DNA of 64,000 nucleotides from Harriotta raleighana (lineage: Eukaryota): contig JBNZDD010013398.1 in NCBI GenBank assembly GCA_050575255.1, positions 287,360 through 351,359 of the forward strand, read 5' to 3'. Positions 11,334-39,416 of this stretch are shown one piece after another. Each line of letters starts with the position of its first letter. The stretch's first letter is position 1. Below the pieces are notes generated by a model. That model searched no databases and was not told the DNA's origin. It was given only the letters and a program-made list of their open reading frames with translations. The position numbers and the translations under genes were made by a program.

Positions 11334-11334
11334 G

Positions 11335-11419
<85 letters not shown>

Positions 11420-12242: not shown

Positions 12243-12284
12243 TGCAATTATTGGCTGGGACTCTTTGTGTCGCTGTGTACCAAT
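12243..12284 (+). promoter_or_regulatory. CSE (CGCT box) of variable exon V3
   Basis: TGCAATTATTGGCTGGGACTCTTTGTGTCGCTGTGTACCAAT, 280 bp upstream of ATG 12564. Confidence 0.85.
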
Positions 12285-12563
12285 GAGGTACTCAAACACT
12301 GCTCTGGGTCCCACCCCTCTTTCCCCCCAGCCAACACGTACAGCAAAGATTCAGAAAGAAGGAAAGGCAGGGGTTGGTGTGTTTACATCCATCTCTGAAA
12401 AAAACAGCCATGTTTTTCAACACAGTGTTCCTCAACTGCTTAGGAAGTGCTTTAAGGCTTAACTAGTTTAGTCGGATATTAAACTGGATACAGGTGGTCG
12501 CCGTGTTTTCTCAGTTTGCATTGGCAACAACACTCCGAATGCAAGGATTAGCTCGGACAGAGA

Positions 12564-15416: not shown

Positions 15417-15475
15417 GTAGGACAATTGAACACAGACTGGCGTTCTTCAGAACCATACATAGCGTCAAAGATCAG
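15417..15475 (+). CDS. Protocadherin constant exon 1 (59 bp): VGQLNTDWRSSEPYIASKI(S)
   Basis: Acceptor TTTACAG| and donor AG|GTATTG; 59 bp, phase 0 to 2, the same size and phase as alpha/gamma constant exon 1; contains the N-x-D-W-R motif. Too short for the ORF track. Confidence 0.9.
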
Positions 15476-15905
15476 GTATTGTATTTCATCTTTGTTTTGT
15501 TCAGTTTGGGCACCTACTGATGGCCTAGACTTTCCTGGATATAAAGCTGATTGAAATCTAGTGGCCTCTGTTGGAAAGGATCATGTTGGGCATTGGATAA
15601 CTGGGTTGTGTTGCTCTTGTAAGAACCTCAAAGATCACATTATCTGACAACACCTCATTTTCAGTTTCACAAAGTAATCCAGTAACAGATGCAGGTCATT
15701 CATCTTGATTAGCCCTATCTACCATCTAGCCCTATCTTGGCTATTTGATTGGGATATTGTTTAATTTTTAATTGTTTCATGATTTAAGGAATGGATCGAA
15801 GGAGAGATGATTGCAAAATAAAACTTCAAAATTTACATGTCAATTTTCTCATATTATTTCTGATTATAAATAATTTCAAACATTGTTTTGCTTTGTTTTT
15901 CCCAG

Positions 15906-15991
15906 CTCCCAGTACTTGGAAGAAAACCTAGCCCAGGATGAAATTAAACGAGAATTCAACAGGCGACACACAGCTATCACTTCAGCAGCAG
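15906..15991 (+). CDS. Protocadherin constant exon 2 (86 bp): (S)SQYLEENLAQDEIKREFNRRHTAITSAA
   Basis: Strong polypyrimidine acceptor TTTGTTTTTCCCAG| and donor G|GTGAGT; phase 2 to 1, in frame with exons 1 and 3. Mammalian alpha/gamma exon 2 is 89 bp. Confidence 0.9.
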
Positions 15992-18900
15992 GTGAGTGTG
16001 AGAAACAAGGAGGAAACTATTCATATATTCTATATGAGACAAGTGTTCATCATTTCACCATGTAAATTCAAGTTGTCTAACTCTTTGTATGTGTATAGAT
16101 TCATGTGTGTATGTTTAGAATTATTCAGCCCTAAAATTGATCAGTTGCTTTCCAGCATTACTAACCGTGTTTGATACTATAAAATCTGTATATGAAGTAA
16201 CCTGATAAATCAAAGGGTTCTGAGAAATAATAATTAAACAAAATGGCAATAAATGTCATTATCAGATACAGACGCAAACAATTATGAAACAGCGAAAAGT
16301 ATTAACTTTTTTATAACATTCAAAAATACATACATGTACATTAAAAAATAATGCAGAAGTTATTTCAGACATAATAACTGTCTGTTTTTGCTGCAGGAAA
16401 GCTTCTGGTCTCATCAGCACAATAGAATTTAGTTTAAAGGTACCATGGTTTGATATCTTGGATGTTTACTGCTCATATGCCACTCAATCTAAAACGTACA
16501 TGAAGAAAATATAAACCTCACACAAGATTATGTGTACTCTCAAAAGATAATTCCAGATGCCTTGCAAATTTCCTGAAAGCAGGGATTTTGTTTCTATTGT
16601 GCCAGACTTGAAATTTCACTATCTACAGTGAAAATATGTTTTACAATATGTGTTCATACATTTAAAATGAATGTGTCTTTATTTGTTTCGTCTGATTTGA
16701 GAAAAATACAAACAGTAAGTTTATTTGCAACAAAATGTACTTCATGGCATAGTGCCTGGAGCTATTTATATATTTAACTGGTTATTGTTAAGAAGATTAT
16801 GTGGTATTTGCAATTATTTACAGGAAATATAAACTCCCACCTTAAACTGTCAAACTATTTACTTTACGTGCGGTTAACCTTTTGGAGGATAGATATACTT
16901 TCTTCTATTCATTCCGTTTGAACTTTCATGTCATATTGATATTAGAGTTACATAAGAAAAACTATAAATCCACAGTGAAATCCGTTGACGCTGAATTTTG
17001 AATATTTCTGAAATCAGCAATGTATGAAATGTCAACTGGATATTTAATTTATATTGATTGCTCCCTAATTTTCAATAATGGAGAATATTATCATCATCAG
17101 TCTTACTTTGGTGCTGAGCAGTATCTAGATGGATGGACAGGGACATGTAAAAATGAAGTGAAGCCAGAAGAATCGCCCATTAAAGCAGAAAAAAACTGTT
17201 ATTTAATGCAGTGTTGCATTTAAATATGTACTTGTCACCCTTCCTGGAAGACAAAATGTAAGTTTCACCCTTCGTATTGTCAAGGGAATTGAATGGAAAT
17301 ATTTAATCATTATTACAGAGTATAATTAATATGAAAGACAGCAAATATCCTTCGGCATTTAACCTTGAGCAGAGTGCTGGACAAAAGTTCTGAACCTTCC
17401 CATTAAAATAGCCATAGCTGGTTTCTTTGGAAAAATATGGAGGTTAGAGCTTAACTATTATCAGATCTTATGTCTAAATTGTACTGGAAGCATAAATTTA
17501 GTGTTAATACCTGTGTTAAAGATTTTAAAACTGACTGTATAGAGCTCCATGGTTTTAGATTAATGTGAAGCATAGTTCTATTAATTGATGCATAAATTCT
17601 ATGGAAATGTGGAACATTAACAAAAAGATGATTGCCTCATTGACATTGGTAATGTACAAATGAGTTGTGAAGTTGCTCAAATTCAGTTTGCATTTAGATT
17701 TTGGATTTTAAAGGACAATTATAACACAGCTTCCGCACTGATGTGATGTGAATTTGACTGCAGATGAACATAGAAATTGCAATGCAACTATTTATTGATG
17801 ATATTTCCAAGGTTGCAGAGTACAAAATTTGAATATTGTAAATTTACTTTATGGGGTGAAAATGAAAGATTTTATTCCATGCTTACATAAAAAGTATTAC
17901 CTTTTGATTGTAAGAAATTGTTTTCAAAACAGAAAGTGCCTATGTTATGCCTAATAATTAAAAAATAATAATGTGACTCCCAAGCACACAGCATTGATAA
18001 ATAATTTAGATAAAAGCCCCTCAAAAATCTTGATTGATGAGCATTCCGAGATTGAATGACTTGTCTCACAGGAATTGAATGCTGTTCTTTAGGTCCAAAC
18101 TCAGTCTAGACTTGTGGGATGAAAGATGCCTTTCTTTTGGCCAAATAGTTCTTAAGTGACATGAATTTTATCAGTCTCAGTCAGTTCTTTAGCCATTGTG
18201 AGGTCAGGGTATGAAATCTGCCTGGAATTGTGCATTATTAGATATTAAATTCAGTTTCTCTCTGAGGATTGTTGACTTCAGACACATTTTATGCAATACA
18301 AAATTGAACTCCATGCCAAGGGAATTGTGAATTGGTGGATGGAAGAAACTTTACATTTCATGTATGTATATTGTCTCTGGGTTGACGTGTTTGGCATTGA
18401 GAGGACTGTGTTAAATTTTCCTGCCTCAGTGAGTCTATAAAGGGGGAAATCCCACATTAGAAATGCACAAATAACAAATAAAATTTCAGCACAGTGTTGA
18501 AATGGGCAGAAAGGTTTGATTCTTCATTTGATTAATGTTCACCCAAACATTTGCATGGGACTTTCACTTCTAAATGTTATTTCTGTAAGCAGGCATTGCA
18601 AATATTAAATTCATTCTGAATAAAACTCAAACAGCTAGTGCCTGGCAAGTGATAGGGACAATGATTTGTTAACAAGGGTATATTGTGAATATCAGCATGA
18701 GTACTGCCTTGAAGTCAATGAAGTAACCATTAATGTCAGTATTGATGGGTTGTGACATGTGCATCCCTTTAGCCATTCTGTATTTGTGAGTCCTGGTATT
18801 GAGCTGACTGCACAAGATAATGAAGTGCAATAATATGTTTGATAACATGACCCACAAGCATTTGCTTGGAAAACAAATGAAAACTTTCAGAACCATATGA

Positions 18901-19834
18901 GCCAAATGTACCGTGCGTAGCAACAGAGTGGTTTTACTCCTAATAGTAACCGAAACTACGAATGAATAACAGTAAAACTCCAATATGGGTCTTAACCCTT
19001 TGTAGTCTGTATATTCCTGTGTCATACGATATACTCAATCAACCGTTTCATTGTGTTATTTCCAAATCATAGGCCATTACTATCAAGTGGTACAAATTCC
19101 TGTGAGGATTCTCAACACCCTCCGAACACCACTGTGTGCTGGATTGAGAGACAATTGGCATTATTACAAATTCTCTGTAGAATTTCAGATAACCTATAAA
19201 TCAGTAAGAGCAGATGTTCCTATTTTCTTTTTATAATTTAATGTTGAAGTTTTTGTTTTTGTTTGTTTGGTGAGATATGATATCTCAATACATTTCCTTT
19301 GGAATAATAATAATCTTTGCATTTTTATAGCGCCTTATCAGGTCTGTGATACAACTCAAATAGCTTCAGAATATAGTGTAAAGTGAAATGACTGTATATT
19401 TTGTGGAAGTACTGAAAATACAAGAAACAAAGATAAAATATGAGGCTGTTACAGTAGATAGAGTTACATTTGTATCGCTTCATGAGAAATGAACTGCTGT
19501 TGTTCTCCATTCAGAAGCTCTGTCTAATGTGACACATCAAATTAGTTGTGCTGCAGATGCCTTTTCCTGTAGTAAAACTGGATGAGGCACTGGGAGCTAA
19601 TGATAATGACTGTGGAAACATACCACTGCATGATTCATCCGCTTCAAAAAAGAAAGTTGGGGGGAAAGAAAGAATGTTGGATAGAAATGCAAATGAGGAA
19701 ATTGTAGCACAAAGCAGAAAGAAACACTGACCAGAATATAGTTGAAACAAAGCCAGTTGTTTTCAAATCACAAAGAATGTAACAAAATGATTTGTAAATA
19801 GCTTAGGAGGGCAGGAATCAAAATAAAAGTGTAA

Positions 19835-20070
19835 GAGTATAAAAGTATAAGAATTTGCTATGCGAAAGAAGACCAAGGTCGATCCAGTTCGCCATCCAGC
19901 ATCCTGGCAGCCGTTTGACACGGAGTGTTCCCAAACTACAGCTGCAGAGAGATTATTTTTTTCAAGCAGAAATCTATCTGATTTGTTCTTGAAACAAACA
20001 GCACTTTCTGCTTCCACCATCTCCCTGGGGAGTCTATTGTATAAGTTTACTATCCGCTCACATAATTCCA
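19835..20070 (-). mobile_element. CR1-clade LINE 3' fragment
   Basis: Minus-strand ERIVNLYNRLPREMVEAESAVCFKNKSDRFL resembles the CR1 ORF2 C-terminus (RVVNxWNxLPxxVVEA..FK.xLD.FL). Confidence 0.7.
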
Positions 20071-20689
20071 TAATATTCCATAAGGTAATATCTCAAATAC
20101 TAAAGGTAGATACCATAGCAACAGCATGCTCACTCTACAAATTCAAACTACTGAGATGTAGGCTTTACTATCTCTGCATTGTGCTATTAATATAAATGCA
20201 CCATACCCTGCTGGTTTAATGGTAGGACAGTATGAGCAGTGAAAGTAACATTTCAAGGCAGTTGATGCATTTTGATCTTATTATCAACAGTTCTTCTGCA
20301 ATCACAAAGGCATCAGCAATTATAAGGAATGATGATAATTGACAGGCACTGTTTTATTAAAGCTTGGTTACTGTTAATCATTCCATGAAATAGGAATTTT
20401 GCATTAGAATATTTATTCAGGGTAACTAATCACCCTGAGTGTTTATAAGTTTCACAAGTCTAGTATTGTATTGCCAACATCATTGCATGTATTAAATTAC
20501 CAGGCATTTAGAGTCAATGAGCAGAGGGAATTGTTGTGATTTCATTAAATTGTAAGGTATCTCAATGGTTCTTTGATGAGAACATTTTGCTTTTGTCTAG
20601 AACATCTGATTGTGTAATTTTTTTAAATTACATTTTTAATGCATCATGGTATTTTTGTTACTTTTTCTCTCTTCAATTTTCTTTCCTCC

Positions 20690-20930
20690 TTAGCTGAAGG
20701 ATCTCAGCTGAGATGTTAGTCAGTTGCCTAAATGTCCTTGAGCTGGGGGAAAGGGTAAAATTGACAGGGATTCGACTAATCCATCTTTGTGGTACTTGTA
20801 TGGACCTGAAACACAGATAGTGTCAGGTGCCATCCTTTAGTTTTGTGATGGTTGAAGGTCAAATATTCATTAATTTACACAGTCTAGGTTCACACCTTAG
20901 AATGACAATGGACAGCCATTAGCACTTATA
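20690..20930 (+). mobile_element. Fragment of an old interspersed SINE-like repeat
   Basis: CACAGTCTAGGTTCACAC motif shared with the 8.8, 35.6 and 37.0 kb copies. Confidence 0.35.
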
Positions 20931-21299
20931 TCTATATCCTAATATTTGTCATTGCAATATGGAAAGGCAGTTAAAAGAAACATTGAGTGAAAGAACAAGA
21001 ATAGTGTATCATTGGGGTTTTGAGCACAGTTTCCCATGTCAGTGAAAGCACTATTGGCAAATGGTTAATAGTTCCATTTAAATAATTTGGTATTTAGTAT
21101 TTAGTATTCACCAGTTTCCACAGTGATGAATGATTAAATCCATTTATTAGCAGCTTAAATGAGTGTCACAATATGGTCAAACAAATTGAAAAATGATCAG
21201 TACATATCCACAGATATTCTGTAATTTACAACAAAGAAGACATCTTCACTGCCGATTTAAATTCCAGTCCATCTCTATATTTACAACAACAACAAAATT

Positions 21300-22505
21300 A
21301 TAGTTGAGGACCAGGATCTTGAATTGGATCCTCTGGATGATGGATAATGGATGTGGAGCTCCTGTGGCTCAGTGGTTAGAGTACTCGCCTTACAAGTGTG
21401 AGACCAGTGTTTGAATCCAGGCAGATCAGGGTAAAACCTTGGGCAAGTTTCCTTACGTCACATGCCTAATAATAATCCCTGCAAAAAAAAACACAATAAT
21501 ATAATTGATCATTTCAATCCACGATTGTTTGTGGGACACTGCTGTGCGCAATTGGCTGCCACTTTCTACCCACAAATATGCAGTCAATTCACTTTACAGT
21601 ATATTCTGTGAAGCGCTTTGGGATGTCATTAAGATTTGAAAAGCGCTATATCAAATGCAAGGATGATTATTATTATTATTATTATGATGGGCAGCCACTG
21701 GAGTCGGGCAAGGATGGGGAAGATGGGTCATGGAGATTGAAACGTTAGAGGACCCAGGCCACAGAGTTCTGGAGCATCTGCAACCCATGGAGGGAGGAAT
21801 TGGGAAGGTCGACAAGCAGGGCATTTGCATAGTCGAGTCGGGATGTAATGAAGGCATGAATGAGGCTTTGGAAGTGAGGGAGTGGCAGAGTCAGGAAATA
21901 TTGCGAAGATGAGGAAAGGCTGAGCGATGGATGTGAGGGAGGAAAGATAGTTAAGGGTTGAACAAGATACCTAAGTTCTTGACTGGCTTGGTGAGGTCGA
22001 CGGAGCAACCATGGAGGTTGATGCTGCCAGCGCCTGATGTGTGAAGGTGCTGGTCCCAAGGCCCTCGGTATTGTTGACATTCAGCTGAAGAAAGTTAGCT
22101 CTCATCCACGACTTGATGTCTGACAGGCAATCTGTTAGGACAGCAGTGATCCTGGACTCGAGGGTAGAGGCAAAAAGGTAGAGTTGGGTGTCATCTGCAT
22201 ATTTGTGGAAGTTGACTCCATGTCTGTGGATGATGTCACCAAGGGAAGGAGCACATAGATATTGAAAAGTAACAAGCCAAGGACAGAGCCCTGAGAGATG
22301 CCATAGGTGGCAGTGCAGGGACTGGAGGAGAAGCCATTGGTGGCAACAAAGTGTAAACGGTGAGAGAGATAAGAGTCAAATCAGGCAAGGGCGGATCTAT
22401 GAAGATTGAGCTGAGAGAGGCGGTGTAGGAGTGTAGGAGGATGAAGTGGTCAACAGTATCGAAGGTAGCAAAGAAGTCAAGGAGGACATGGAGCCAGAGA
22501 ATGCC
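21300..22505 (-). mobile_element. L2-clade LINE reverse-transcriptase fragment, interrupted by a SINE
   Basis: Minus-strand motifs LLDFFATFDTVDHFILL, FHKYADDTQLY, IHAFITSRLDYANALL, LQWLP and IQRIQFKILVL in the expected order, with frameshifts. Confidence 0.85.
21344..21683 (+). mobile_element. tRNA-derived SINE, near full length
   Basis: tRNA-like head (TGGCTCAGTGG A box, GTTTGAATCC B-box-like), body shared with 26449-26771, and AAATGCAAGG(ATT)n tail. Confidence 0.85.
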
Positions 22506-23029
22506 CTCTGTTTTCATTGGCATAAATAATGACATTGTTATTCCAGACAGACTTGGTAATATTCAAAATATTTGCAGCAGGGTTGGAATTATTCATTAGA
22601 ACGGAACCGAGCATAAAACTAGAATGATTTTTGTTACCAGTGGTGCTGTACTCCCTTTCCCACAGAATACATTGTTTCATAAGCCAAGGCAATCAATGTA
22701 ATTTATTTTGTGCCCTGAAGTAAAACTGGTGTCCCATCTGACACTTCACTTGAAAGTTGCAACTTCAGATTAGTTACGAATTTGCTGCTGGCTTACAGTA
22801 AAATGAATTGGTATGTGTTGCAGTGCTATTTATTAAAAATTATTGAACCTTCACTGCAAAAAAAATCTGCATTGCTGAAGTCAGCTGTAAATCAATCGAT
22901 TTTTCACCAGACTGGTGAAATGAGCTGTCAGAAATGGAAACACAATGTACGCCCTGGGTTGTCAGCTCAAAAACACTCGTGCATTAATTGAACCATGGCT
23001 GAGAGGGTCAACATTACGACCAAATTTAA

Positions 23030-23450
23030 TTGGGTTGTCGCCCTCATCTTCAAAGCCCTCCACTGCCTTGCTCCTTCCTACCTATGTGGCTTGCTAACTC
23101 TATATTGACGTGTGCAATCTCTCTACTCAGCAGGATTTATCCTGCTCCCTGTCTACCATCAGTCTGCCGGAACATCAGCGGTTCGGCCTTTATCCTTTAT
23201 CTCCACCCTATTTGGAACTCCATTCTGAAGTTCATTTGCCTCACTCTGTCCCTTGATTCCTTCAGGGAACATCTCAAGACCTTTCTCTCCAACTGAACTT
23301 TCGATCACCCTCATACCTCTATCCTTCCTGCCCTCCCCTCATTCTGTTCCCAATCGCCTGCGTGGGACCGAATCCCTGGCAGACCAGCACCTTGGAACAT
23401 CTTCCTGACATGAAAGGCACTGTGTAAATGTCATTTCTTATTGTTATTAT
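23030..23450 (+). mobile_element. L2-clade LINE 3' end
   Basis: FKALHCLAPSYL-like coding remnant, then ...LKTFL and a TTATTGTTATTATT tail. Confidence 0.65.
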
Positions 23451-26448
23451 TGGTAGTTCAGATATTCCTGCTCCTCAGAAATGAATGTAATTTTTGTTGT
23501 ATTCATCTGCCTCTGAAGTGCTAGAAACTCATCACTTGTCGGTCTCCAAGTGAAAGTAACAGTCGTGATCAAGCATCAAACCTTTCTCTAGGCTTTGGAC
23601 AAAAAGAGTATTACCCTGATAGGATCTGACTTCCTTTTTTTTTCTAGAATTGATGTCTGAATACACTAACCTATATTTTCAGCTTTTTGAATGTAGGTGA
23701 CATGATAATGGTAAATAAACCCATGTTGAAGGCAGACACCTCAAATCTTTATTTAGGATCATGGTATGATACAAAAAGTAAGGATTTTTGCTAAGATATG
23801 ACAACAAATTTGACTGCACAAGCAATGATATTTGTGTATGTTACTTGACAGTAGATTGCTACTCGCAATAGAAGTGAATTTTTCTCTGACCAAAGATTAT
23901 TATTGTTTGTAGTGAACATGCATACTTATAAATGTGGAGCCAGTGTGAAAAATCTTCACAGCGGCATGAATGTCACTTGCAAGTTGCTGCTAATTTGTGG
24001 CAGTGTTATAAAGTTAGCCTCAAATTGATTAAGACTGTTTAAATCTAGTTTTCATGTAGAACCAGTAAATGATTGTGTTGAATGAGTTTTTTTCCTCCAC
24101 AGTGGACAATTACACTGAAGCAGGGTGCACCTAATTGCTGTAATTACATTTCATGGATATTTAACATTTAAATTAAAATCTGACTATATTTGGAGAAGAA
24201 ATATTCATGTGGTTATGGTTGTTTTTCTCGCTTCACTGAATACCACCGTGTGTTAGTATATTTGGATAATATTAATTCAGTTGAAAGTAGTAATGTGAAC
24301 CACATGCATATTTCATATATAACATCATCAATTATGAATAATCATAATCAAAAAAATTTCAAAGTTTAAAATGTGTGTACATGATTTGAAATGGTTTAGA
24401 AGATCTGCTTTGTATATATAATAATTTTTTGTAGGTTATTTTAAAGCCCCCTATTTAATGATCAATTCTGGTTTCTCATAGGAGCTGTGAGAGAAATATT
24501 CCGCAAAAAAGGATTAAAAGATTAAATACCTCCAACGGAATATAGCAAACTGTAGCAGAGGTTTAGTATTGGACAACATTAACAAAGATTAGTCAGGCAG
24601 GAAAATGAATGAATGTTTATCTGAGGGAAAGGGGCATTATTTAATCTAGATTGATGCCCATTTTGTAAAATTCTGTATTTGTTATGTAGTACGGCACACT
24701 GTACCTGGTTATAATGCGACTCAATGTTCATTTGAACAACTGTGAACAGAACTGAGCTAATTATGCCAGTTTGTATTGTATTTCCTTCCAGAGTGCTATC
24801 TCACACACTCTCAGCTCTGTTTCCAAATGCCATTGGAGAACTCAAGTCTTGGATGAATTTTGGATTCACAGAGAAAAATATTTTTCATAGGTGTAATGAG
24901 AGAAGTTATAGCACATGCAGTATCCATTATACCTATTAAGCCCTTGCTGTTGCTCACTCTTCCACTCAAGCTTTCTGCTCTTTTGATGGTAAGGAAAGAA
25001 AAACATATCCACAAAAGTAAAGATTTTACAAATTTTCACAAGCATTTCAACCTGAGGAAACCATCAGTAAAATTGGTAATCAGTTGTCTGAATGCAAATC
25101 TTCCTCCTTTAGGCAGTGAGCAGAGGGCGTGTGACGTATGGTAGACAGTGGTAATGTCATTTTTTTTGCCTTTGATTCTATCTCTCTGGAACATTCTATC
25201 CTTTTAAAGTTAGCCAAATGATATTATGACTTTCAGTTCTCTACCCAAACTGAATTCATCTTGGCTGCTCTACTAGTGACAATCAAATGGCAGGATGAGT
25301 ATTTTTTGTTGACATCAGACTGATTTGAAAATTTGACCGACAAGCAGGGCTTGTGGCAATGGATGAGTGGCTTGTGGGTCACAGCCATCACGGTGGGCAA
25401 TTGGCCGACACCATCTTCCAAAGTGGAAAATGCTGAACAATTAATGCATTTGTACATTGCCTTTCACATCTTGGAACCAGAACGTTCCAAGGTTCTGATG
25501 ACTGCCATAGTTAAATAGCTGGGATGAGGGAGGTGGATAGAGAATTTTACCTTCAACACCCACATGAAGTCTATTCCATACCCGTAAATATGGAATGAAT
25601 TATCCTCAGTATTGCTAATATGACTCCCAAGCTTTACAGGAGGGAACATTGGAATGTAGAAACAAGAATAGCCATTCACTCCCTCATGCCTGTTTCACCA
25701 TTTCTATAGGATCATGGCAGATCTTGTCAGGAGGATAGGAAGGAAAACAGTTTAGATTTAATTAGTGTGTAGTGCATGGTGACTGTTGTTTAAAATAATT
25801 AAAGGTGGATTTGGACAGCTATTTAGAGGAGTGAGAAGTGTGAGGAATAGAGTGTTGGTGTGTGATATATTATTGTTCTGGACTGGCCTAATGGGCTAGA
25901 TTGTGTGGGTTGAGATATCTTAAGATCTAGGTAAGAAATTGGATAGTTAAGGAAATGCAGCCTTATATTGCGTCGTGCCTTCAAGAGAGGAGAAATTAGG
26001 GGTGAAGAAGTAGCTTTAATAATGTACTCTCTTTGAGAATCATATAAAACAACCTCTTTATAAAGAGAAATTCAAACAAGTTATGTCAGGTGCATTCCTC
26101 ATCATTCCAAATGGTCACTAAGTTATGCAGTTCCAAATCAGCCAGTGATTAATTTTCCATTAAGCTGCCAAGAATCATTGCATCTGTTATTCATCCACTC
26201 CTTTAGGTTGTAAAATATATTTGCACAATGTGGAATACAGTAAGATATATTATTCTTGGTGAGGTGCCTTGCTATTAAGGCAGATTACTTTCAGTGCTGT
26301 TTTTGTGGCTAACACTGAGCTGCTTGCTGCTTGTGTGTTGCTATGGTGATGAGGAAAAAGACTTGTGCGGTTGCAAAGAATACTTACACTGTGTGCTGTG
26401 TGGGAAACCAAAATGCTGTCTGTCTTCTGTTTTGCAGTGTTAATAAGT

Positions 26449-26771
26449 GGATTTCTGTAGTGTAGTGGTTAGTATTCTCTCCTCGCAAGCGAGAGACCTG
26501 GGCTTGATTTCCAGGCAGAGCGAAACCGTAAGCAAGTTTCCTTAATCTACTCACCTCTGTTTACCTAGCAGTAAATTGGAATCTGGTTGTTAGTGAATTA
26601 GTGGATTGCTTTCACTCTATCCACAACTCTTTGTGGAACACTGTTGTGTGCCTTTGGTTGCTGTGTTTTGCCCACAAAATCCACTTTGCAATACAGTATA
26701 TCCTATGAAACACTTTGAGACATCTCAACAACGTGATAAGATGCCATATCAAATGCGAGGATTATTATTAT
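26449..26771 (+). mobile_element. tRNA-derived SINE
   Basis: TAGTGTAGTGG A box, CAAGTTTCCTT body, TTTGTGGAACACTG core and AAATGCGAGGATTATTATTAT tail; same family as 21344-21683. Confidence 0.8.
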
Positions 26772-28094: not shown

Positions 28095-28610
28095 GACAAC
28101 AAAATTACATTTGTGTAGAGCGTTTCACTTCAGAAGGATATACCAAGGTGCTGGACAGTCAGTATTTCATACGCAAACTGGGGTTGGGATTGGGGAGGTT
28201 GAAGTGAAATTAGGTGATTTGAGGTGACCGATGGGACCATCGAAGAGGATTTTTTGAGGTAGGACTTGAAGGAGGCTAGGGAGAGGGCAAGGCAGAGGGA
28301 ATGCAGGATGGAATTCCAGAGGTTGCGGGCAGCGTGACTGAAGGCTCACCCGCTGATGGTGAGGCGGGTGGGTTGGAGCACATGGAGCAAGTCGGAGCCC
28401 TCTGAGCAGAGTGGAGGGAGCGGGCAGTTTGGTAGGGGGTTAGTAGGTCACAAACGTAGGGTGGGTTGAGTTCGTGGAAGGATTCGAGGGCAAGAACCAG
28501 GATCTTGAATTGAATTCTCTGGGTGATAGGGATCCGGTGGAGTTGGGCGAAAATGGGGGAGATGGGGTCGCAGAGCTTGGAGTGGTGGAGGACACGGGCT
28601 GCATAGTAGT
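28095..28610 (-). mobile_element. L2-clade LINE 3' fragment
   Basis: Minus-strand QLHRIPITQRIQFKILVLALESFHELNPPYVCDLL followed by the 3' tail. Confidence 0.8.
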
Positions 28611-28769
28611 AACTATCTCTTTGTTTTTGTAATGAAGCCATCAATGTCGTTTGTTAATATTTTTCTCTCTCCTACTTTTCCTATACCATCCATTAATTTT
28701 CCGCCATGCCTTCATTTCCCAAAACAATCTTAATAATAATTTTTAAAATAATTTTAGAAATGCAGAATA

Positions 28770-28930
28770 CTTAATAATAATCGTTGCATTTTGTACGGTA
28801 CCTTATCATATCTTTGAAATGTCATAAAGTACTTCCCAGAATATACTGTAAAGTGAATTGACTGTATATTTTGTGGACAAAACATGGCTGGTAATTGTGC
28901 ACAGCAGCATCCCACAAACCTCATGGATTG
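28770..28930 (-). mobile_element. 3' half of the tRNA-SINE family (decayed)
   Basis: Reverse complement of the core TTTGTGGGA..CTGCTGTG..CAATT...CAGTCAATTCACTTTACAGTATATTC. Further short pieces occur near 1-30, 29.9, 34.3, 36.2, 37.8, 40.7 and 45.8 kb. Confidence 0.7.
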
Positions 28931-29369
28931 AATTTTTTTTATTCCTAACTTTTCCGGTGAGACTTGTTGCATATGCTCTGTTAAAATAGGGAGCTGTAGA
29001 ATGTTTCAGGAGAAACATATCTGAATGAAATTACTTCCATTTTCAGAGTAGATCACATTTAATTCATCTTAAATTGATGTGAGCTGGATTTCATGTCTCT
29101 GGCAATTTATTCACCACATTGTCATCAGCCACTACATTTGTCAGACAGCGTCAAGTTACTGACTAATAAATATATTGTGTAGTCAATGGGCCAGAAATTC
29201 AGCAGAGATTTGAATCAGATTGTATAAACAAACCTAGTTTTAATCAATTTGCATTACAGGTGGTGTGAACAGCCCATGAATTTTAAAGTTTGTGTATGAA
29301 TTATTTGGAATAAAATTCTGCTAATTTGAAATGGGTACAAATTGCAAATAAATTCCAATGAAGAGCTAA

Positions 29370-29650
29370 CACATAATATAAGAATAAGAGGAGGCCATTC
29401 AGCCCCTCAAGCTTATTCCGGTGTTCTATTAGACCATGGTTGATCTGATCTGTACCTCAAAATATCCGCCTTTGCCCCACATCTTTCGACACCGTGACCC
29501 AATAAAAATCAGAAAATTTGAATGGATCCAACATCCACAACCTTTTGGGAGAGAGAGTTCCAGATTTCCACTATCTATTGTGCAAATAATTGCTTCCTGA
29601 TTTCATTCCTAATTGGTCTAGCTCTAATTTTAAACAGTTACAGCTGTTGA
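29370..29650 (-). mobile_element. CR1-like LINE 3' end fragment
   Basis: GGAGGCCATTCAGCCCCTCAAGC...CATGGTTGATCTG...GAGAGTTCCAGATT pattern; related pieces at about 25.65, 45.9 and 59.3 kb. Confidence 0.55.
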
Positions 29651-31374
29651 TCTCACTGTGTGAGTGGAAGCTGAGCACAAAATAGTAGAAGAATATCACA
29701 CAGTCCTTGACACCCCCCAACTGAGAGAAGGAATGGTTTTGGAGATCATAGAGGAGCTCCGCATGGCAGGAGTCGATCTGCATTCATACATCACGCAAAC
29801 CAATTCTCGAGTGAGAAATATGTTTGTGGATTGATTGTGTAATATAAGCTGTGTGCGCATCAGTTAGCGAATTGTTCATTTCATTGATTGACCTCAGGAA
29901 CCAAATAGAAGAGCATAGCCTACAAACAGCCACGGTCATTATACTTTACAGAAAATCCTGTGAAGCTCTTTGAGACATCCTCCCAATGTGAGATGAACTG
30001 ACAGATGCAAAGATTATTGTTGAGATATAAAACTGATTAAATTAGAAACATGAGGGTGAAAAGCCACTGTAGCCAGGAAACTCAATACACTTCTTCAAGA
30101 AACAAATGGAACTGTTATACTTTCCTTGCAAGTAAAAATATTTTTAGTTTGCCATTGTTCTCAATAACGTTATATCTAAGGAAAGATAGCCAAGGAATAA
30201 GCTGGCAGCTACCTGGTAAACAATGTACATTGACACTAAGAATGAATCATCACCACTAAATGAGTTGCAGGATGACTCACGGTTTTATCTTGGTAAACTC
30301 TACAATATTACTACCAGAGGTGAAGGGAATACAATATACAGTATTCATGACACACAGCCTTTGGTTACAAAATAGATTACTTTTATGAAAGCATTTATCA
30401 CTGATGCATTTATCGCTGGTCTTGATTAAGAAATGCTTTTTCAAAGGTCCGGTCTGCCTGTCCAGTTGGATTTGAAAGAGAATGGAGATAGATCCTCTTT
30501 ATGTTCCTGAACAACAATTCACACAGATTTAAGAAAAAAATTAATGGCTGAACTTCATGGCTATTCTCCAGGCATATCTCCTGATTTCCAATACCATCAC
30601 AGTGATAGTGGAGGTCACAGAACATTTCTAATAGTGGCTCTTATAACGCATGAACGTCTTGATCACAATACTTACACAATGGCATCATGTTGAGGTGGTG
30701 CACTGTATGGTATTTGACACAAGCAGTCTCCAGAAGTCTCTAGTAACTGCGTAAAATAAGTGGAGGATTGAAGTATCCATTTGAAATCTGCAAAAACATA
30801 ACGTATGAGTGGAATTAGCAGTCACTTGAACCTGCCAGTCTAGCACTAGTGCCAAAATATTACTAAGCTACCTTTTCAAAGCCCTACTTTATTTCATGTT
30901 TCAGTTGTAAGGGAGCATTTCACAGCATGAATCAGCTCGACTGATACTCAATTGCATCAAAACGCGCTCGAGGGTGCTACAGACAGCAGTGATGACGTTA
31001 GACATCTGGCAGAGTGACACTGGTAGCTTAGGAGGAAGAAGAATTTCCTGTTCAGATAATGCAGTCCGTATGCATACATTTGAGCTGAAATCACATTAAC
31101 AAGAATATAAACAGCCCATTGTCCCCTCTTCACTCTCATGGGCATTTGTTAACCTTTTCCCAGGCAGGCATTCAAAAAAAGACATAACATAGGAAACCTA
31201 CATAGGAAAACACTGCAAAATTAGGTAAAGTCTTGATGATAAATTTTTAGGAAAATATAATAGGAGAAAGGAATTTATAAAGCTGTGCATCCATATTCAG
31301 TTGACTATTTAACTCGGCTTCCTTAGAGATAGGCCAAACCCATTACTTTAATGGAACTAATATTTCTAAATATC

Positions 31375-31378
<4 letters not shown>

Positions 31379-31404
<26 letters not shown>
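31379..31404. repeat. (GT)13 microsatellite
   Basis: Directly visible. Confidence 0.95.
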
Positions 31405-31405
<1 letters not shown>

Positions 31406-34400
31406 GCAGGATTGAATGCATTATCTCTTGGGAAGCAAGCGAGATCTCCCCTGAGGCAGAAGCGGCTGCGAGTAGTTTTGGGCAGTAATCAAAAGCACCG
31501 ATAATGGTTAGAGCTCAAAAACATTGAATTATCAAAAACATGAAATCTGTGGCTTCATTTAAACCCATTGCTCACTAGGGAAGGGGTTTGTTTGCAGACG
31601 ACATTTTCTTATAATGATGTATGTTTTATTACCGGAAAGTGGGGATATTTTTGTGGTTTAAGAGAATATCCTAAAACTGTACGAAAGTAATAAGAAACAG
31701 TGACTATCGAACAAAAAAATATTATTTCGGGTTAATTTTTAAAGATATATTGCCTTGCCGCAGAAAATACATTATTTAACAAGTGCAATTTTCATCCTTA
31801 TATTTCAGCAAATAATATTAACAATAATCACATCAATAAACTTGTCAAAGACAAAGCTAGCATAAGTTAGCGGGCAGCAGGACTTGATTGAAATAGGGTC
31901 AGGTTACAGACCTTTCACCATTAGTAAAATGGAGCATAGCTGAATGTAAGAAATGGGAACAAAGTTGTTTACTTGAGTAAATACATCTCTTTGATGTTTA
32001 TTTCAAATAAACCCCTAGAAAGAAAGTGGCTGCTCTGGCTAGTAACATGGTGGGAGGTTTTGTAAGGAAGCACGATGGAATGGTTGACCCCTGAAGAGCA
32101 AAACACAGACTCTGCACATCAGGGCTTCCCCCTCGAGGCAAGAGCTGATTTTAATAACTACACTGGAGCCTTTGAAACAGACTAGGTCTCTTTCATGTTT
32201 TATCCATTGCAAAGCGGACCAAACCTCAGTTTGAATGGAGTTTATTATGCGAAATTCTAACAGAAATTCAGTTGTTAAATATGTCTCTGAGCTTTTTGGC
32301 TCTTTATAGACATACATGCAATCGGTCTCTTTCTCCCTTCCTTACAACACCCATAAGCGGTCGAGAGTTGACTCGTTATGAAGCAATACGGTTGCATTTA
32401 CTTTTGATGTTTTACGAGAAAAAATATTTGAGAACCAGATTGTAATAGAATTTTTATAAAGGATTACACAAAAAAATCGGACAACTGATATCAAAGGCCA
32501 AATTGATGAAACCTAGAATTTTAACACAAATGTAAGTTTAAGAAAACCCTCTTTGATGAGATGTGCAATAATAAAAAAAATTGCTGCACTGCCGAGACTT
32601 AAAGCACAGGGTAAATGTGCCTAGAATTAGAACTTGGTTCCTTCGAAAATGTGGATAAGTTGGTTTTAGGAGCAATTTGATTTGCAGCAGCATAAATAAA
32701 AAGGTAGCAATCAATACCAACTATAACATGAGACATTTAGTCACTTACAGTTGGTTTGGGAAGTGCAAAGTGGCACTTGTGAGATTTCGACTGAGTCGCA
32801 ATATTAGGGCTTTGCTCCACATCTAACTATTCCTCATCCTTCCGGGAGTGCTTGACACCAACACCGACAGGCTGAAATGGAAAAGGGTTCCAGTTCCCAC
32901 TACTAACATCCATCACTTTGAAAAGCATAAAATGTACCAATTTTGTATTAAAAAATTTAAAATTTATTACATTGCATACAGTCACGGCATGAATAAAATA
33001 TTTGTCTTGGGAGCTGTGGGCTGTGCAGAAATAATGCAGCTCATAGATTCAGCATACAAATAGCCCACAAACACTTTGATGCATAAGTTTTTTGGATGCC
33101 TGTGTTCTCTGTCAACTGTCCATTACTTGCCAATCATCAATATTGTAATTATGTTCACTTGACATTCTCATTACATGTAGCATATGGTCACAACGCAAAT
33201 TATTAAAGTCTGGGCATCTGACAGGAGTATTCTGTAGGAAATTAATATTTATTTTACTGTGTCTTATAGACGCTTCATTCTGGAAAACAAATGCACTTAA
33301 ATAGGCATTTTCAAATGTCACTTTTAAAGTAGCAAGAAATTACAACAACAAAATTACATTTATATTGTGCCTTTCACATGGAAAGAATGTCCCAAGGTGC
33401 TGGTCAGTCAAGAAATTTGCAATTACACCTTCAAATACCAGAGTTTGATTGAGTGCCACATTGCACAAGCTCAAAACCTAATGACTAGAATTTTGTGGTG
33501 GATTTACCTTACCAGTAGATTTATCTGCTGGTGGGTTGAAAACATCTATATACTTGATTAATCATGATCCTTTTCTGTCTTGGTGCATTTTAACAGCTGT
33601 TGTTGAAGTTTTCTATCCTGTTGCCCAGCAGAAGATATTTGCATGAGCATGAGTATATAACTGGGTTTATTTCTCATGTATGGAAAAATCTATAATTCAC
33701 AAGCACTGCGGGCATGACAGAATTATCACGTCTCTTATGCAAGTAAAATAAATGGAATACGTGAGGCTGCCAGTGCAATAATCTATCTATTATTAATACA
33801 GGCTACAGCGGGATGCTCATCAATATGGCTCCTAACTGGTTACAAAGAGATGCTTGAGAATGGACCTGAGATGGATAAATGCATTGTCTATATTTGCTGG
33901 TTCGCCACAGTGAATGACACTGAGGTCAACTGTGTGGAGAGGGAAACCTAACCATTGAATGATAGTGTGTCGCAGTATCACAATTGTTGTATACCTACTC
34001 CAATTAAACACATATTATTTGATCATTAAGTATATAGGAGACCATTATCTCATAGTGATTTTGCCAGCTCTCTAAAAGAGCAACCATTTATTTACTTTCC
34101 CCCTTAGTTTTTCACGAATGTTTTTATGTATTTTCTTTGGCAATTATTTGCCCAATTCTCATTTCAATAAAACTGTTGTTCACCAACAAAATGCACAGTT
34201 ACTACACCTTACACTATAATAATGATTATAGTAATAATAACCCTTGCATTTGATATAGCACCATATCACGTCTTTGAGACGTCTCAGTAGTTCACGCAAA
34301 ATACCGTAGAGTGAATTTACTGTATATTTTGGGGCCCAATCTATATCCAGTGAAGTGCTTCAAGACATTATCCTGATGTAAAAGGCTTCATATCAAAATT

Positions 34401-35529
34401 TATATAAAACGATTGTTATTTCAACAACAATAACAAAATTACATTTATAGAGCACATTTCACGTCAGGAGGACGTCAGAATTAAAGATTCACAGGTCAAT
34501 CCATTCAAGTCGTAAAACTGGAAAACAGCTGTGATTGAAAAAAAACTATTGGGTTCAAAGGCTGAACAAAAGTCTGTCCTGTTAAAATGATCCACAGTTG
34601 CTCTCTTCCTGGAAGACATGTGATGGTGTCATGACAACAGTTTCTAGGATTGAACATTTTATGACCTCATCTAAACCATTAGGGGATACACAGGTAGTTT
34701 AGGGGATTTAACCCTTAACCTACTGAGAAAGGGATGATTGTATTCTACAATTAATTCAACAAATTCTTTTAACTGGAGAATCGAGTGTTAACATTCAATT
34801 CATCTCAGAGCTACGATCTTTGGAATGTAATACGGGTTCCAATATCTCACTGACAACTGAACTTTTGCAGTCCATATGTTGCCTTTTTGCACAATGATAG
34901 GAAAAGCAGATGAGAAGCTGACAACCTGCCTTGCATTAGCCTGAGAGATGAGATGAATATAGCCCTTCTTAAACAGGATTAACACATAAGCGTTTTAACA
35001 AGACATTGTTTAAAACTGAAATTCTCTATTGCTATGGAGACAAAATGCTTCACAACAGAATAGTAAACAGTTATAATTTCATCGTTTGAAGGTTAGTTTA
35101 TTGGTGAGTTAATACAAGGGTCCCAAATGTAATATTTGCAACCTGGATTCGCGCATAATTCTTTTTTTTCTATATCCTGCTGATAATGGGATGTGCATTG
35201 CACAAATTGTCAGGAGCTCTAGTCTGACACGATTGGAAGTAGATTGATTTTGAAGCGGACTTTATCCCAGGTCTTATTTCCAGTTGATAGGGAAGCAGTT
35301 GCTCTTTGCACGTTGCACTGGATTGTGTCATAATAGTTTGCAAATTACTGTTAGATTTGGTTGGATGTTTGAATGGCAGAGAAAATGAAACGAACACGCA
35401 CCTCAAGTACAGACACATATCCAAGGTGGTGGATTTGCAATATACTGTTCTATCGTAGGATAATATTGTGATGGACAAGCACTGTTTCGAAGAAAATTGT
35501 GACAAATTGAAACGTTATGTTCCTTATAG

Positions 35530-35655
35530 CAACCCAGTGAAGCTGTCTGGGTGAGGACAGGTGTTTATTGGCAGTGATGCTATTGCAGTCAGACACTCTG
35601 CAGTAGCTCACTGTCTAGACTGACTTATCAAGGTTACTTGACCGAGGTATCTGAA
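35530..35655 (+). mobile_element. Fragment of an old interspersed SINE-like repeat
   Basis: GGTGAGGACAGG...GCTCACTGTCTAGAC; similar to 36830-37040 (AGTGAGGAAAGG...GACACTGAGTGTC...GACATGAATAATGG). Confidence 0.4.
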
Positions 35656-38600
35656 GGCTGCCAAGACTCATAGTACTGTCTGCTGGCAAAGGAAAGCATA
35701 AAATCAAAGATATTTCTGCAGAATTAACTAGTGGATGCCGATAGAATCCTATTATCTCAATTTCAGGCTTATGCGTTGCAGATAAAAGGAGAAAAACGTG
35801 ACCGCTGGGAATCTGAAATAAAAAGAGAACATTCTAGAGAATGCAGAGCACATCAATCAGCATCTGAAAGAGACAGACAGGTTAAGACTTCAGGTGATGT
35901 GATAACAAAGGGTTTCTCGTTCCTCTTTCTCTTTCAGATACTGATCCAAAATTTCCCAACCCGTTTCTGTTTTAAAATGAAGAGTCATGCTGTTTCTATC
36001 CGATAGGATTATGTTGTATAACTTCAGTTAAAATTTGCATTTTGTTGCTTTTTCTGTTGTGCTCTTTCTCCGTTCATTTCTCTGAGGCTCACGTAGAGGA
36101 GGATCAATCATTTGATCATTGATTATTTGTCTGGATGTCTTCGTGAGACTGAACCAATTTTTTTGGTAGCGCTAGCAAACACACAAAGACAGAGCGGTGA
36201 GAATAGAATTGCAATTTGCCCACAAAATACACAGTCAATTCACTTTACATTATATTCTGTGAAGTACTTTGAAACATTTTAGTGATGTGATAAGACACTA
36301 TATCATATGCAATTATCTGTATTACATTTCTCAATGAAGCTTATAAAGGGACAAGAGTGGATTGATTAAACGTTTGTGCTATTTGGATATTTTTAAGTGT
36401 AATTATTTTTCGGAACGTTATCGTGAATTTCGTGAAAGTCAAGCTTGTCAGGGTGAAACTTTATGCTTGTGTAAGCAGCTTTCATCTGCCATTTTCAGCA
36501 TGCACACAGCACTTGCCCATTTGCACTTTGTAGATCGGTGATTGAAATTAAACGTGACTTTCAGGTAATTTTAATATGAATCTGACTGACGGCATATTTG
36601 ATTTGAAGCAAATCTGAAATCCCAATTTGTTTGATGCGAGTTTGGCTCCTGGCGTGTAATTTTTGTGAAAGTTTAGCAGCAGAAGAACATTTTTTAAAAT
36701 TGACTCTGTCTGCTGGGGATGCGATTCTTTTGTTGGTGAATCGATTGTGATTATGCTTTCAGATGTACAAGTGGTTGTTGTGTTGACAATCTATATGAAG
36801 AGCCCAGTTCAACAATGGGCTTCAATGTTCCTGGGTTAGTGAGTGAGTAAATTAGCCAACATTCTGTTGATTACCACATCGGAACGCCTGATGGAAGGTG
36901 TATGTATTCGTGCATGTTGAGTGAGGAAAGGAAAGATTTGATTGAATGACCCTCTCCTCCCTCCCTTTCCAGGAGCTTGCTGACACTGAGTGTCAATGCT
37001 TAGACATGAATAATGGGCGTCTTGGATGAATTACTGTGGCATACAATAATAAAAGCTGAAATGCATTCTGATGAGTTAGAGAGAAATCCGACGCAAATCG
37101 GATAAGAGAAAACAAATCGAAACAACAGACGATTTTCGGTTCTTGAAAACTCCTGCTAAAGCAAAATGAAATTTATATTGCTTTTTTTTCCCACCAATTT
37201 TGTGAAAATTTGACTTTGTGTTGTATCATTTAGGACTTGCCGAGTTTCAGCAATATATCATTTATTTTCCTCATTACTAATGCAGTATTACTGAGCACGT
37301 ACTGAGTAAAATGGTGATAAACCATAAAGCTCCCATTTGCCAGGGTTTACATGGAAATATCACATAATGGTCCAACTACCATTTACAAGCAGCTCCTTAA
37401 TTATTAATACAGCAACATCTTTTAACAACAGATTTGAGATTTCTTTAAACATGATTCAGTACGAACAATATAGAAACTGCAAGTGTGTTCACTTTCTGTT
37501 TCTTTCTCAGTTTTTCTCCCCCACACTCCATAGAAAAATAATCTTCCCCAGATCTTATGCAGCTTTTTAGCTGCAGATACATTTTGTATCGAGAAGGCAG
37601 TTTACAGAGTTTGACAAGAGATTCAGCTTCCAAGTAAAACTGACAGAAGCTAATATTAAACAAAAGGTTTTCTAGCAATCAATGAACAACATCATTCAAA
37701 CCACAGATTTCAAATAAGAAAGTCAATTTCTGCTGTGACTATTTTTAAAAGGTAGCATTTTAATACGAATCCTTGCATTTGACATAGCGGCTCATCAAAG
37801 AGCCTAACAGAATATACTGTAAAGTGGATTGACTGGGTTTGATATAGTCTCATGATCAGGAACAATTTAATTCTATGTAGTCATAATTCACCATGTCATA
37901 TTCTACAAAAAGTAAATATAATTTTTTCTTCACCACCAGACTCCAGGGGTGGACTGTAGTTTCTGCCGATTCTCTGATTGGACCTATATTAGCAAGAAAG
38001 ATGCAACATACACATTCATTCCACCATATTATTTTATTTTTTGTCATTCGATTTAATGCAAAGCATTCAGAATTCATTGTACCATCACCACAATTAGACA
38101 TAAAACTAATTAATATATTTCTCAAATGACCAGTTTCAAATCCATAAACATTTTGTGCTTCCAGGCATGCTTCTAGTACTCCTGTAAGGGCAGTTATTTG
38201 TGTTAGTCTCAAATAAGATTACACTGTTAATTTATCCACTGAACAATGCAAAACCAAAAGGAATTTCCATTTTTCTTTTATACATTTCTCTGAATCAAAG
38301 CTCACAATATTTAGAAAAGCAAGTTCATAAATATATCATCAAGAAATTGAATATTTTTAAAAGCAACTGAGAAAATTAGGGATGAAAGAAATCATTAGCC
38401 AGGCAGTCTTTGCTCTGATATGTAGCAGTAACTCAGAATGAAAATTAAAATTAATCTGAAAATTGCAGATGACATTTATGCTCACTAAATTTAGCAATTA
38501 AATTTACTGTATGGGGAGTTGGATATAATTTTATTTTTTTCTGACATTCAATTCATTTATGGCAAAAAGATTTGCCAATCAAAAACCTGGAGTTTTTTTT

Positions 38601-38909
38601 AGTTGCTTCTGTTTATTTGATCTCTGTAACCTGCGTTTGAATTTACTCCAGACTGGTAGGAAACAATATAATGTCTGATAGCAGTAAGGATCTCAATGAA
38701 GTTAGTTCAGGTTATTTCAGCAAGTCTCAATGGATATAATAGTCATGTACAAAACTGTGAACTAATTTGGTACCAAATAGGGCGAATGCATCCCACTCAT
38801 TCAGGTCTTAAAAAAAATGCCCGTTGTGTTTGATAGGAATTCTAGAATTGTGTTGTTGATATATTCTGTGATAAAGAACATGTCACAATTTGAATTGCGG
38901 GCACGAAGC

Positions 38910-39097
38910 TTTGCAAAAGTCTTCCTCTATCCCTCCATCTTGCTACCAATCCTTCCTCATCTCCCTGCTGAAGATCTTCCACTTCAACTGTCCCTATGAT
39001 CTCTTCTTCCCCCAAGCTCAGTGTCGTGCTTCATTACTGTCAATTGCTCTGGGACACTACCCTGCGTGAGGAGGCGCTATATTGTTATTGTTGTTAT
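38910..39097 (+). mobile_element. L2-like 3' end just upstream of the constant exon 3 acceptor
   Basis: GCTCTGGGACAC..CGTGAGGAGGCGCTATA followed by a TTGTTATTGTTGTTA tail, like other L2 tails in the window. Confidence 0.55.
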
Positions 39098-39138
39098 GAA
39101 CTGTAATGATCTTGACTTTATTTCATTTATTTTAATAG

Positions 39139-39416
39139 ATGCAGGATACATTGAAGCATCTCCGGATCTAGAAGATGGCATTCCTACTTGGGCTCCACGG
39201 TATGGATCACAGCAGGTTGAGCACCAGGAACCTGATGAGTATCAGCCTGGCATCTACATGGGAGGTAGTCCAGTCCGGTTGCCCGCCAAACAGGACCAAG
39301 TGGCTAAACTGGATGGGCAGCAATCTGCCTCATCCACCAAGAAAAAGAAGAAACGCAGCAAACGAACGGAAAAGAGGGAGAGCAAAGTTACCATTGAGGA
39401 CCCACAGAATGAGTAA
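39139..39416 (+). CDS. Protocadherin constant exon 3, coding part: (D)AGYIEASPDLEDGIPTWAPRYGSQQVEHQEPDEYQPGIYMGGSPVRLPAKQDQVAKLDGQQSASSTKKKKKRSKRTEKRESKVTIEDPQNE*
   Basis: Acceptor TTTATTTTAATAG| in phase 1, compatible with exon 2; RYGxQ...PDxYxxxxYxxGS similarity to the gamma constant domain; Lys-rich C-terminal patch; stop TAA ends at 39416. Confidence 0.9.

Follow-up and report, generated by a model that had tools for sequence, protein, structure and literature searches.

The locus examined here, a 64,000-nucleotide stretch of Harriotta raleighana DNA (the window), belongs to the clustered protocadherins, which are nerve-cell adhesion genes, and raises the question of which constant region its three shared exons encode. 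The original prediction read them as a new, lineage-specific tail combining alpha-derived and gamma-derived exons. Our analysis indicates that they are very probably the constant exons of chondrichthyan Pcdh-mu, that mu isoforms share the 140-aa tail and that its mixture of motifs is most simply read as ancestral leftovers.

Constant exons, variable exons and promoter elements

The boundaries of the three constant exons (CE1, CE2 and CE3) are all AG/GT and the joined frame is open, confirming the exon lengths (Table 1), phases 0/2/1 and 140-aa tail that had been proposed; the motifs quoted with them were likewise found in place. CE3 contains a PF15974 match above the cut-off and is single copy in this genome. 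A phase-0 GTGAG donor ends each of the variable exons V1, V2 and V3, and near-identical copies of a 28-nt CSE-like element lie 270–295 nt upstream of each. The locus thus displays the clustered-protocadherin hallmarks of a PF15974 tail and one CSE-like element per variable exon (V1–V3), together with the architecture of variable exons and three common constant exons, the CE2–CE3 junction being taken from colinear proteins only. By analogy with findings in PMC7811963, the CSE-like elements may bind CTCF. No NRSE within two mismatches of the fugu motif was found in the 64-kb window.

Table 1. Positions in the window of the Pcdh-mu exons, promoter elements and tail features
Feature	Positions	Strand	Basis
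CSE-like (CGCT box) promoter element of V1	1890..1917	+	near-identical 28-nt element
V1, Pcdh-mu6 orthologue	2176..4620	+	85% over 815 aa to C. milii mu6; phase-0 donor; V1–CE1 junction in relatives
CSE-like promoter element of V2	5778..5805	+	near-identical 28-nt element
V2, Pcdh-mu7 orthologue	6065..8515	+	86% over 817 aa to C. milii mu7; phase-0 donor
CSE-like promoter element of V3	12259..12286	+	near-identical 28-nt element
V3, Pcdh-mu8 orthologue	12564..15008	+	91% over 815 aa to B0YN84; V3–CE1 junction in relatives
CE1, Pcdh-mu constant exon 1	15417..15475	+	59 nt; 19/19 aa as in C. milii mu
CE2, Pcdh-mu constant exon 2	15906..15991	+	86 nt; 29/29 aa as in C. milii mu
CE3, Pcdh-mu constant exon 3, coding and stop	39139..39416	+	278 nt; 96% to C. 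milii mu
Eroded WIRS position	39327..39344	+	ASSTKK aligned with the F-x-[TS]-F-G-K of delta, nu and alpha (alignments)
Lys/Arg patch, then Ser and 19-aa mixed-charge extension	39339..39413	+	motif census

The junctions were traced in relatives with about 90% similarity, using contigs and reads. Among the joints listed, V1–CE1 was present in one contig and two RNA reads, V3–CE1 in three of three contig runs (five letters diverge at this joint), and CE1–CE2 in three of three contig runs and 11 RNA reads with seven starts; V2–CE1 was absent among the joints listed from these contigs and reads. The CE2–CE3 junction is based on colinear database proteins only, among them the mu8-type protein P0021 (955 aa; contig of 3,318 nt); the run search listed no RNA run for the exon-3 stretch. 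The claim that the tail is common to V1–V3 held for those three exons but not for their number, given that eight variable exons are served, five of them upstream of the window. Upstream variable exons matched C. milii mu1, mu3 and mu5 at 85–87%, and all eight formed one clade in the variable-exon tree (support 100). The number of V3 (mu8) follows accession order, B0YN84 being named gamma-A10-like in UniRef.

Identity of the tail as Pcdh-mu

The tail shares 136 of 140 residues (97%) with six C. milii proteins, all but one of them named mu, and is 70–82% identical to 15 other mu-type tails, 14 of them from sharks and rays. Mu-type variable exons were present in 21 of 21 mu-tail proteins. The alpha, gamma, delta, mu and nu tails each formed a clean clade of their own in the tail tree, which placed the window tail as sister to C. 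milii mu (99/100) within the mu clade (100/100). The locus is ordered delta, 21 variable exons, eight mu exons, window tail, nu, in agreement with the published delta/epsilon/mu/nu layout; epsilon is here a label of position only, the comparison having been made without C. milii epsilon sequence. A delta-like exon is present at positions 138301–140973 of the contig (C13398). A PF15974 search of this genome gave three matches, corresponding to delta, mu and nu, which speaks against a fourth, alpha-like constant region, and profile and exon scans of the cluster stretches for such a region recovered delta, mu and nu exons only. PDB sequence searches with the tail returned nothing relevant and the ESM Atlas no usable match.

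The Pcdh-mu subcluster of Callorhinchus milii was reportedly described by Yu et al. in PNAS in 2008 and corresponds to UniProt entries B0YN77–B0YN84. Membership of a chondrichthyan-specific subcluster, as predicted, is borne out by the identity to C. milii mu and the locus order. Novelty is not: the similarity search met this named subcluster directly, the outcome that the original prediction had itself said would remove novelty, and the tail is already known, Pcdh-mu having been named in 2008 and having database entries. The C. milii subcluster likewise has eight variable exons, with one-to-one orthologues at 85–91%, and sits between the epsilon-position array and nu; its tail differs by four substitutions, all in exon 3.

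Origin of the mixed motifs

Mu exons were compared with alpha, gamma, delta and nu tails from databases by mean local score, with shuffles as a control. CE1 scored 43 with nu, 33 with gamma, 30 with delta and 29 with alpha; CE2 scored 41 with nu, 22 with delta, 15 with alpha and 14 with gamma (shuffles 13–21); and CE3 scored 99 with delta, 87 with nu, 78 with alpha and 72 with gamma. The best-scoring match was nu or delta in all three exons, whilst CE2 against alpha was at shuffle level (shuffle mean 13). Nu and delta, at approximately 28–33% identity, share with mu a 59-nt exon 1, N.DW, an SQ.LEE-type exon-2 start, W.PR, Y..N.Y..G and the Lys patch. Both differ in keeping WIRS, and nu also in having an exon 2 that is long and repetitive (254 nt in this genome) and almost no post-lysine extension. 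Bony-vertebrate alpha (~23% identity) is likewise built of three exons and shares the W preceding RYG/KYG, G[ST]P and a long Lys run with an extension containing acidic residues, but possesses WIRS and two to eight PxxP motifs and lacks Y..N.Y..G. Bony-vertebrate gamma (~25% identity) resembles mu in its RYG, Y..N.Y..G, Ser in the basic C-terminal patch and lack of WIRS, but is without the W, G[ST]P and long extension, and its exon 2 aligns to that of mu no better than chance.

The motifs cited as alpha or gamma also occur in delta, nu, or non-mammalian alpha and gamma: N[TS]DW was present in 7/10 delta, 3/9 alpha and 9/16 gamma tails, and the S.Q.LEE-type exon-2 start in 3/3 nu, 6/10 delta, 8/9 alpha and 1/16 gamma. 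Mu exon 3 has gamma-like features alongside alpha-like ones that gamma lacks, namely the W preceding RYG, the G[ST]P and the post-lysine extension. The suggestion that the tail keeps ancestral features was upheld. The apparent alpha/gamma mix likely reflects old shared ancestry; most simply, both sets of motifs are remnants of a single ancestral constant region, with losses differing among alpha, gamma, delta, mu and nu.

The backbone order of the five tails was weakly supported, the best bootstrap being 66% for nu+gamma and at most two of 15 topologies being rejected (none under C20); shared ancestry is therefore the simplest reading rather than a proven one. The mu tail fell outside both the alpha clade (as alpha sister, 16% bootstrap, AU p=0.46) and the gamma clade (as gamma sister, 3%, AU p=0.30). 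A mu+gamma join (84/69) in a tree without alpha, which carried a long-branch warning, fell to 3% when alpha and more gamma tails were included. Exon-wise likelihoods favoured mu+nu in exons 1–2 and nu+gamma in exon 3, by no more than 3.4 log-likelihood units, and this disagreement makes some exon-level exchange within chondrichthyans possible.

Mu and nu may have arisen by duplication within cartilaginous fishes, or had exons 1–2 swapped by gene conversion, with mu then losing WIRS and diverging. We consider this somewhat unlikely: exon-wise resampling joined mu and nu in 62–63% of draws for CE1 and 94–98% for CE2, their variable exons are sisters (support 97 and 95) and CE1 DNA identity is 35/59 for mu/nu vs 26/59 for mu/delta, but the whole-tail bootstrap for mu+nu was 8% and exon 3 favoured nu+gamma by 2.4–3.4 log-likelihood units.

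In a more doubtful alternative, mu and nu are the orthologues of the bony-vertebrate alpha and gamma constant regions, respectively, mu having diverged; jawed vertebrates would then have had three constant regions (delta, alpha/mu and gamma/nu), with reciprocal WIRS loss. The delta-mu-nu order is colinear with delta-alpha-gamma as given in PMC2764143, nu+gamma is the best-supported backbone pair, and a tree with mu+alpha was only 0.01 log-likelihood units worse. Both tails extend beyond the Lys patch; a K/R run of at least five occurs in 11/11 mu and 9/9 alpha tails and in no others, as does, in 9/11 and 9/9, a [KR][QH][DE]-type motif after G[ST]P that was defined post hoc from the alignment. 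The variable-exon motif EVRG[NTS]G was confined to 7/8 mu exons and three alpha-C2 sequences. However, mu+alpha appeared in just 16% of bootstraps, alpha scored below nu and delta in every mu exon, and the published view, as cited in PMC2764143, treats mu as lacking an orthologue in bony vertebrates. Variable-exon trees, built with a quick tree method, made nu the partner of mu and grouped the chondrichthyan exons as a whole with delta. These trees and an AU test rejecting mu with alpha-C2 variable exons (p=0.0085) ruled out an alpha-C2 expansion, the candidate suggested by EVRG[NTS]G, and the variable exons argue against descent of mu from the alpha tail (AU p=0.009). Were the alpha/mu and gamma/nu orthology true, WIRS would have been lost from alpha/mu in cartilaginous fishes and from gamma in bony vertebrates, an ancestor with three tails, ordered delta-alpha-gamma, would replace the published seven-subcluster one, and tail function could be studied through a swap made by nature.

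A true mosaic, with exons 1 and 3 derived from gamma and exon 2 from alpha, is highly improbable and already largely refuted: CE1 and CE3 minus the Lys patch score slightly higher with gamma than alpha (33 vs 29 and 53 vs 47), WIRS and PxxP are missing as in mammalian gamma and the exon-2 start is nearer alpha (8/9) than gamma (1/16), but those margins fall within one standard deviation, CE2 scores 15 with alpha against a shuffle mean of 13, exon-wise draws gave mu+gamma in 1–3% (CE1) and mu+alpha in 1% (CE2), delta and nu show the same motif mix, and neither the scores nor the exon-wise likelihoods, which pair exons 1–2 with nu, assign the exons to different parents (gamma, alpha, gamma).

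Probable motif loss and proposed function of the mu tail

The alpha constant domain contains WIRS and PxxP motifs, according to PMC6047886. Both are missing from mu (0/11 tails each), as had been noted of this tail, and WIRS was found in 3/3 nu, 10/10 delta and 9/9 alpha but 0/16 gamma tails. The mu tail has likely lost WIRS, a docking site for an actin regulator (the WAVE complex), which its delta and nu neighbours keep. The post-lysine extension of mu, previously called acidic, has five D/E in 19 aa yet a net charge of 0 to +1. The gamma PKC/lipid motif KKSGK occurs in 0/11 mu vs 10/16 gamma tails; mu tails have only a less strict basic-Ser/Thr-basic site, found in 11/11. AlphaFold gave the C. 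milii mu tail a mean pLDDT of 55.5 and one helix. Searches of the open-access literature yielded no paper dealing with the function of mu or with shark WIRS.

For Pcdh-mu, a mode of action can be proposed from mammalian mechanisms covered in PMC6047886, PMC7811963 and PMC10849722. Each neuron would pick variable-exon promoters via CTCF/CSE elements. Splicing of the three constant exons onto a mu variable exon very probably gives every isoform the same cytoplasmic tail. The ectodomains would provide homophilic recognition, whilst the tail, predicted to be disordered, likely signals without direct WAVE complex recruitment and acts more like a gamma than an alpha tail. Its basic patch may bind acidic lipids, with the adjoining Ser as a possible PKC switch, and FAK/PYK2 binding is conceivable. 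Any link to WAVE would depend on cis-dimerization with delta or nu isoforms, which bear WIRS. The presence of WIRS in delta, nu and alpha but not in mu or gamma suggests that it is ancestral and was probably lost twice, such that WIRS-less tails next to WIRS-bearing ones may be a recurrent design of these clusters.

Identity and exon structure of the tail

A protein search with constant exon 3 matched 21 of 72 candidates, and the best six matches were all from C. milii; five of these are named protocadherin mu (mu1, 3, 5, 6 and 7), and the sixth, B0YN84, is next in the accession series after the named mu entries. The full tail was identical to all six entries at 136 of 140 residues, compared with 70–82 % identity to the remaining 15 matching proteins. 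V1 matched mu6 at 85 %, V2 mu7 at 86 % and V3 B0YN84 at 91 %, compared with 51–55 % for the remaining C. milii paralogues, and mu-type variable exons were found in all 21 proteins bearing the mu tail. The genome searched (G000) contained one copy of exon 3. Comparing the tail with elephant shark subclusters, as the original prediction had proposed, thus gave a direct match to a named one, Pcdh-mu. The feature is real and was described correctly, and it is not new, being already known under that name. The mu, nu and delta proteins of sharks and rays carry automatic names (alpha-C2-like, beta-15-like, gamma-like or protocadherin-10-like) that hide their subcluster identity. A search of the open literature, with subscription papers and supplements outside its scope, found no functional study of mu; 'protocadherin mu' and 'Pcdh-mu' as whole words had no match there, although Greek-letter spelling may escape such a search.

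The peptides quoted in the original prediction were located on the + strand at 15429, 15904–15990 and 39198–39350, and its three-exon, 140-aa architecture with phases 0/2/1 was borne out by AG/GT boundaries.

Constant exons encoding the Pcdh-mu tail (window positions)
Feature	Position	Length	Strand	Boundaries
Constant exon 1 (CE1)	15417–15475	59 nt	+	AG/GT-bounded
Constant exon 2 (CE2)	15906–15991	86 nt	+	AG/GT-bounded
Constant exon 3 (CE3)	39139–39416	278 nt	+	AG/GT-bounded

V1, V2 and V3 each end in a phase-0 GTGAG donor, and near-identical copies of a CGCT-box element lie ~280 nt upstream of each. Splicing was checked with four public runs from relatives, ~90 % alike, aligned to 4000–16300. 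Three were contig sets, for which an RNA origin is a guess; the fourth is recorded as RNA. Among the joints listed, V1 to CE1 was seen in one contig and two reads, V3 to CE1 in three contig runs, and CE1 to CE2 in three contig runs and 11 reads from 7 starts. The V2–V3 interval at 8932–10164 displayed very high read depth and many loose ends, which points to interspersed repeats. A 173-aa poly-Pro ORF at 11160–11681, spanning a 120-N gap at 11433, was rejected as a gene and is a simple repeat.

Cluster layout

A PF15974 search of the genome returned three matches: the window tail, a second 96 % identical to C. milii nu and a third that shares 94 % identity with C. milii B0YN55. One of the relatives of B0YN55 is named protocadherin delta 1. 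We infer the delta label, because most delta-type rows carry automatic names (e.g. protocadherin-10-like). In order, the locus comprises a delta exon and its three constant exons, 21 variable exons, eight mu exons, the mu tail and nu exons, the last extending onto a second contig where the nu constant exons sit. This order (delta, array, mu, nu) agrees with what PMC2764143, PMC4978886 and PMC7811963 cite for elephant shark, a delta/epsilon/mu/nu layout, and the extra chondrichthyan subcluster originally proposed corresponds to Pcdh-mu within it.

At the start of the epsilon-position array, exon L010 (G000:C13398:138301-140973) is delta-like (63 %) and has a phase-0 GTGAGT donor, as in mu exons, that differs from the next 20 exons of the array; a scan found no constant exons between it and the rest of the array. 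Its splice partner may be the mu tail, ~160 kb downstream. V4 (49592–52162), the first exon past the mu tail, is delta-like too (62 %) and clusters with delta and the L010 exon in variable-exon trees, hinting at repeated units, each with a delta-like exon at its head. V6, running to 62498, has a frame change near 60280, in EC1, no phase-0 GT[AG]AG donor was found near its end, and it is a pseudogene or an assembly error. Nu constant exon 2 (L031; G000:C13673:39483-39736) is 254 nt long and contains tandem repeats of QR[DE]A/V type, which differ between species, and some shark nu proteins have an extra insert ahead of exon 3.

Affinities of the mu tail

The tail had been read as a mosaic with gamma-like exons 1 and 3 and an alpha-like exon 2. 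We compared 49 rows (9 alpha, 14 gamma, 11 mu, 3 nu, 10 delta and 2 mammalian gamma); the alpha and further gamma rows were full tails from a profile search with 82 matches, ten of them looked up for names, after partial, near-duplicate, delta-type and unrelated rows were left out. By mean local score, mu was closest to nu in exons 1 and 2, and in exon 3 to delta followed by nu; profile–profile scores agreed (delta 91, nu 85, alpha 63, gamma 52). Exon 2 scored 15 against alpha and 13 against shuffles. The motifs taken as alpha/gamma diagnostics also occurred in other tail classes: N[TS]DW in 7/10 delta and 3/9 alpha tails, lungfish included; the mu-type exon-2 start in 3/3 nu and 6/10 delta tails and a lungfish gamma-type tail; and R[YF]G in 9/10 delta and 7/9 alpha tails.

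In a tree of 34 of the 49 rows the tails fell cleanly into five clades, and C. milii mu was the sister of the window tail. On these sequences the branching order among the clades is ambiguous, the top backbone pair, nu+gamma, reaching only 66 % bootstrap (mu+delta 54 %, mu+alpha 16 %, mu+nu 8 %, mu+gamma 3 %), and AU tests rejected neither mu+alpha (p=0.46) nor mu+gamma (p=0.30). Within-exon resampling over all 15 backbones, whose log-likelihoods differed by ≤3.4 units, paired mu with nu in exon 1 (62–63 %) and exon 2 (94–98 %), and in exon 3 mostly paired mu with no one. The gamma–alpha–gamma pattern is therefore unsupported by exon scores, motifs or trees, whilst the accompanying suggestion of retained ancestral features fits.

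An unlikely reading is that, at constant-exon level, mu is alpha and nu is gamma, with reciprocal WIRS loss. Colinear subcluster order and the nu–gamma affinity permit it, and mu exon 3 shares several traits with alpha that gamma is without; however, variable-exon trees (52 rows by FastTree, 29 by quick IQ-TREE, leaving out near-duplicates, one gapped and one frameshifted exon) joined mu to nu and to delta, and a grouping of mu and alpha-C2 variable exons was rejected (p=0.0085), a result that long branches among the fast bony-vertebrate exons may have helped to produce.

Signalling motifs

The mouse alpha WIRS, FITFGK, is required for WAVE-dependent rescue, according to excerpts of PMC6047886. 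All nu (3), delta (10) and alpha (9) tails examined had WIRS, and none of the 11 mu or 16 gamma tails did; the corresponding mu columns read ASSTKK or close variants, so the motif appears to have eroded in place. PxxP was absent from all 11 mu tails, and a basic patch followed by Ser/Thr was kept in all 11, resembling without matching the PKC and lipid-binding motif of the gamma tail (PMC10849722). AlphaFold, from a 9-row alignment, modelled the tail as mostly unstructured with one helix (pLDDT 55.5).

By analogy, the standard clustered-protocadherin model likely applies: promoter choice among eight mu variable exons would give isoforms sharing one tail, modelled as disordered, that is predicted not to recruit WAVE directly and is probably subject to lipid and kinase regulation. 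Nu exon 3 (L002:1504-1713) has an intact FITFGK WIRS and a gamma-like KKKSGK end, so that nu, not mu, bears both alpha and gamma signalling motifs.
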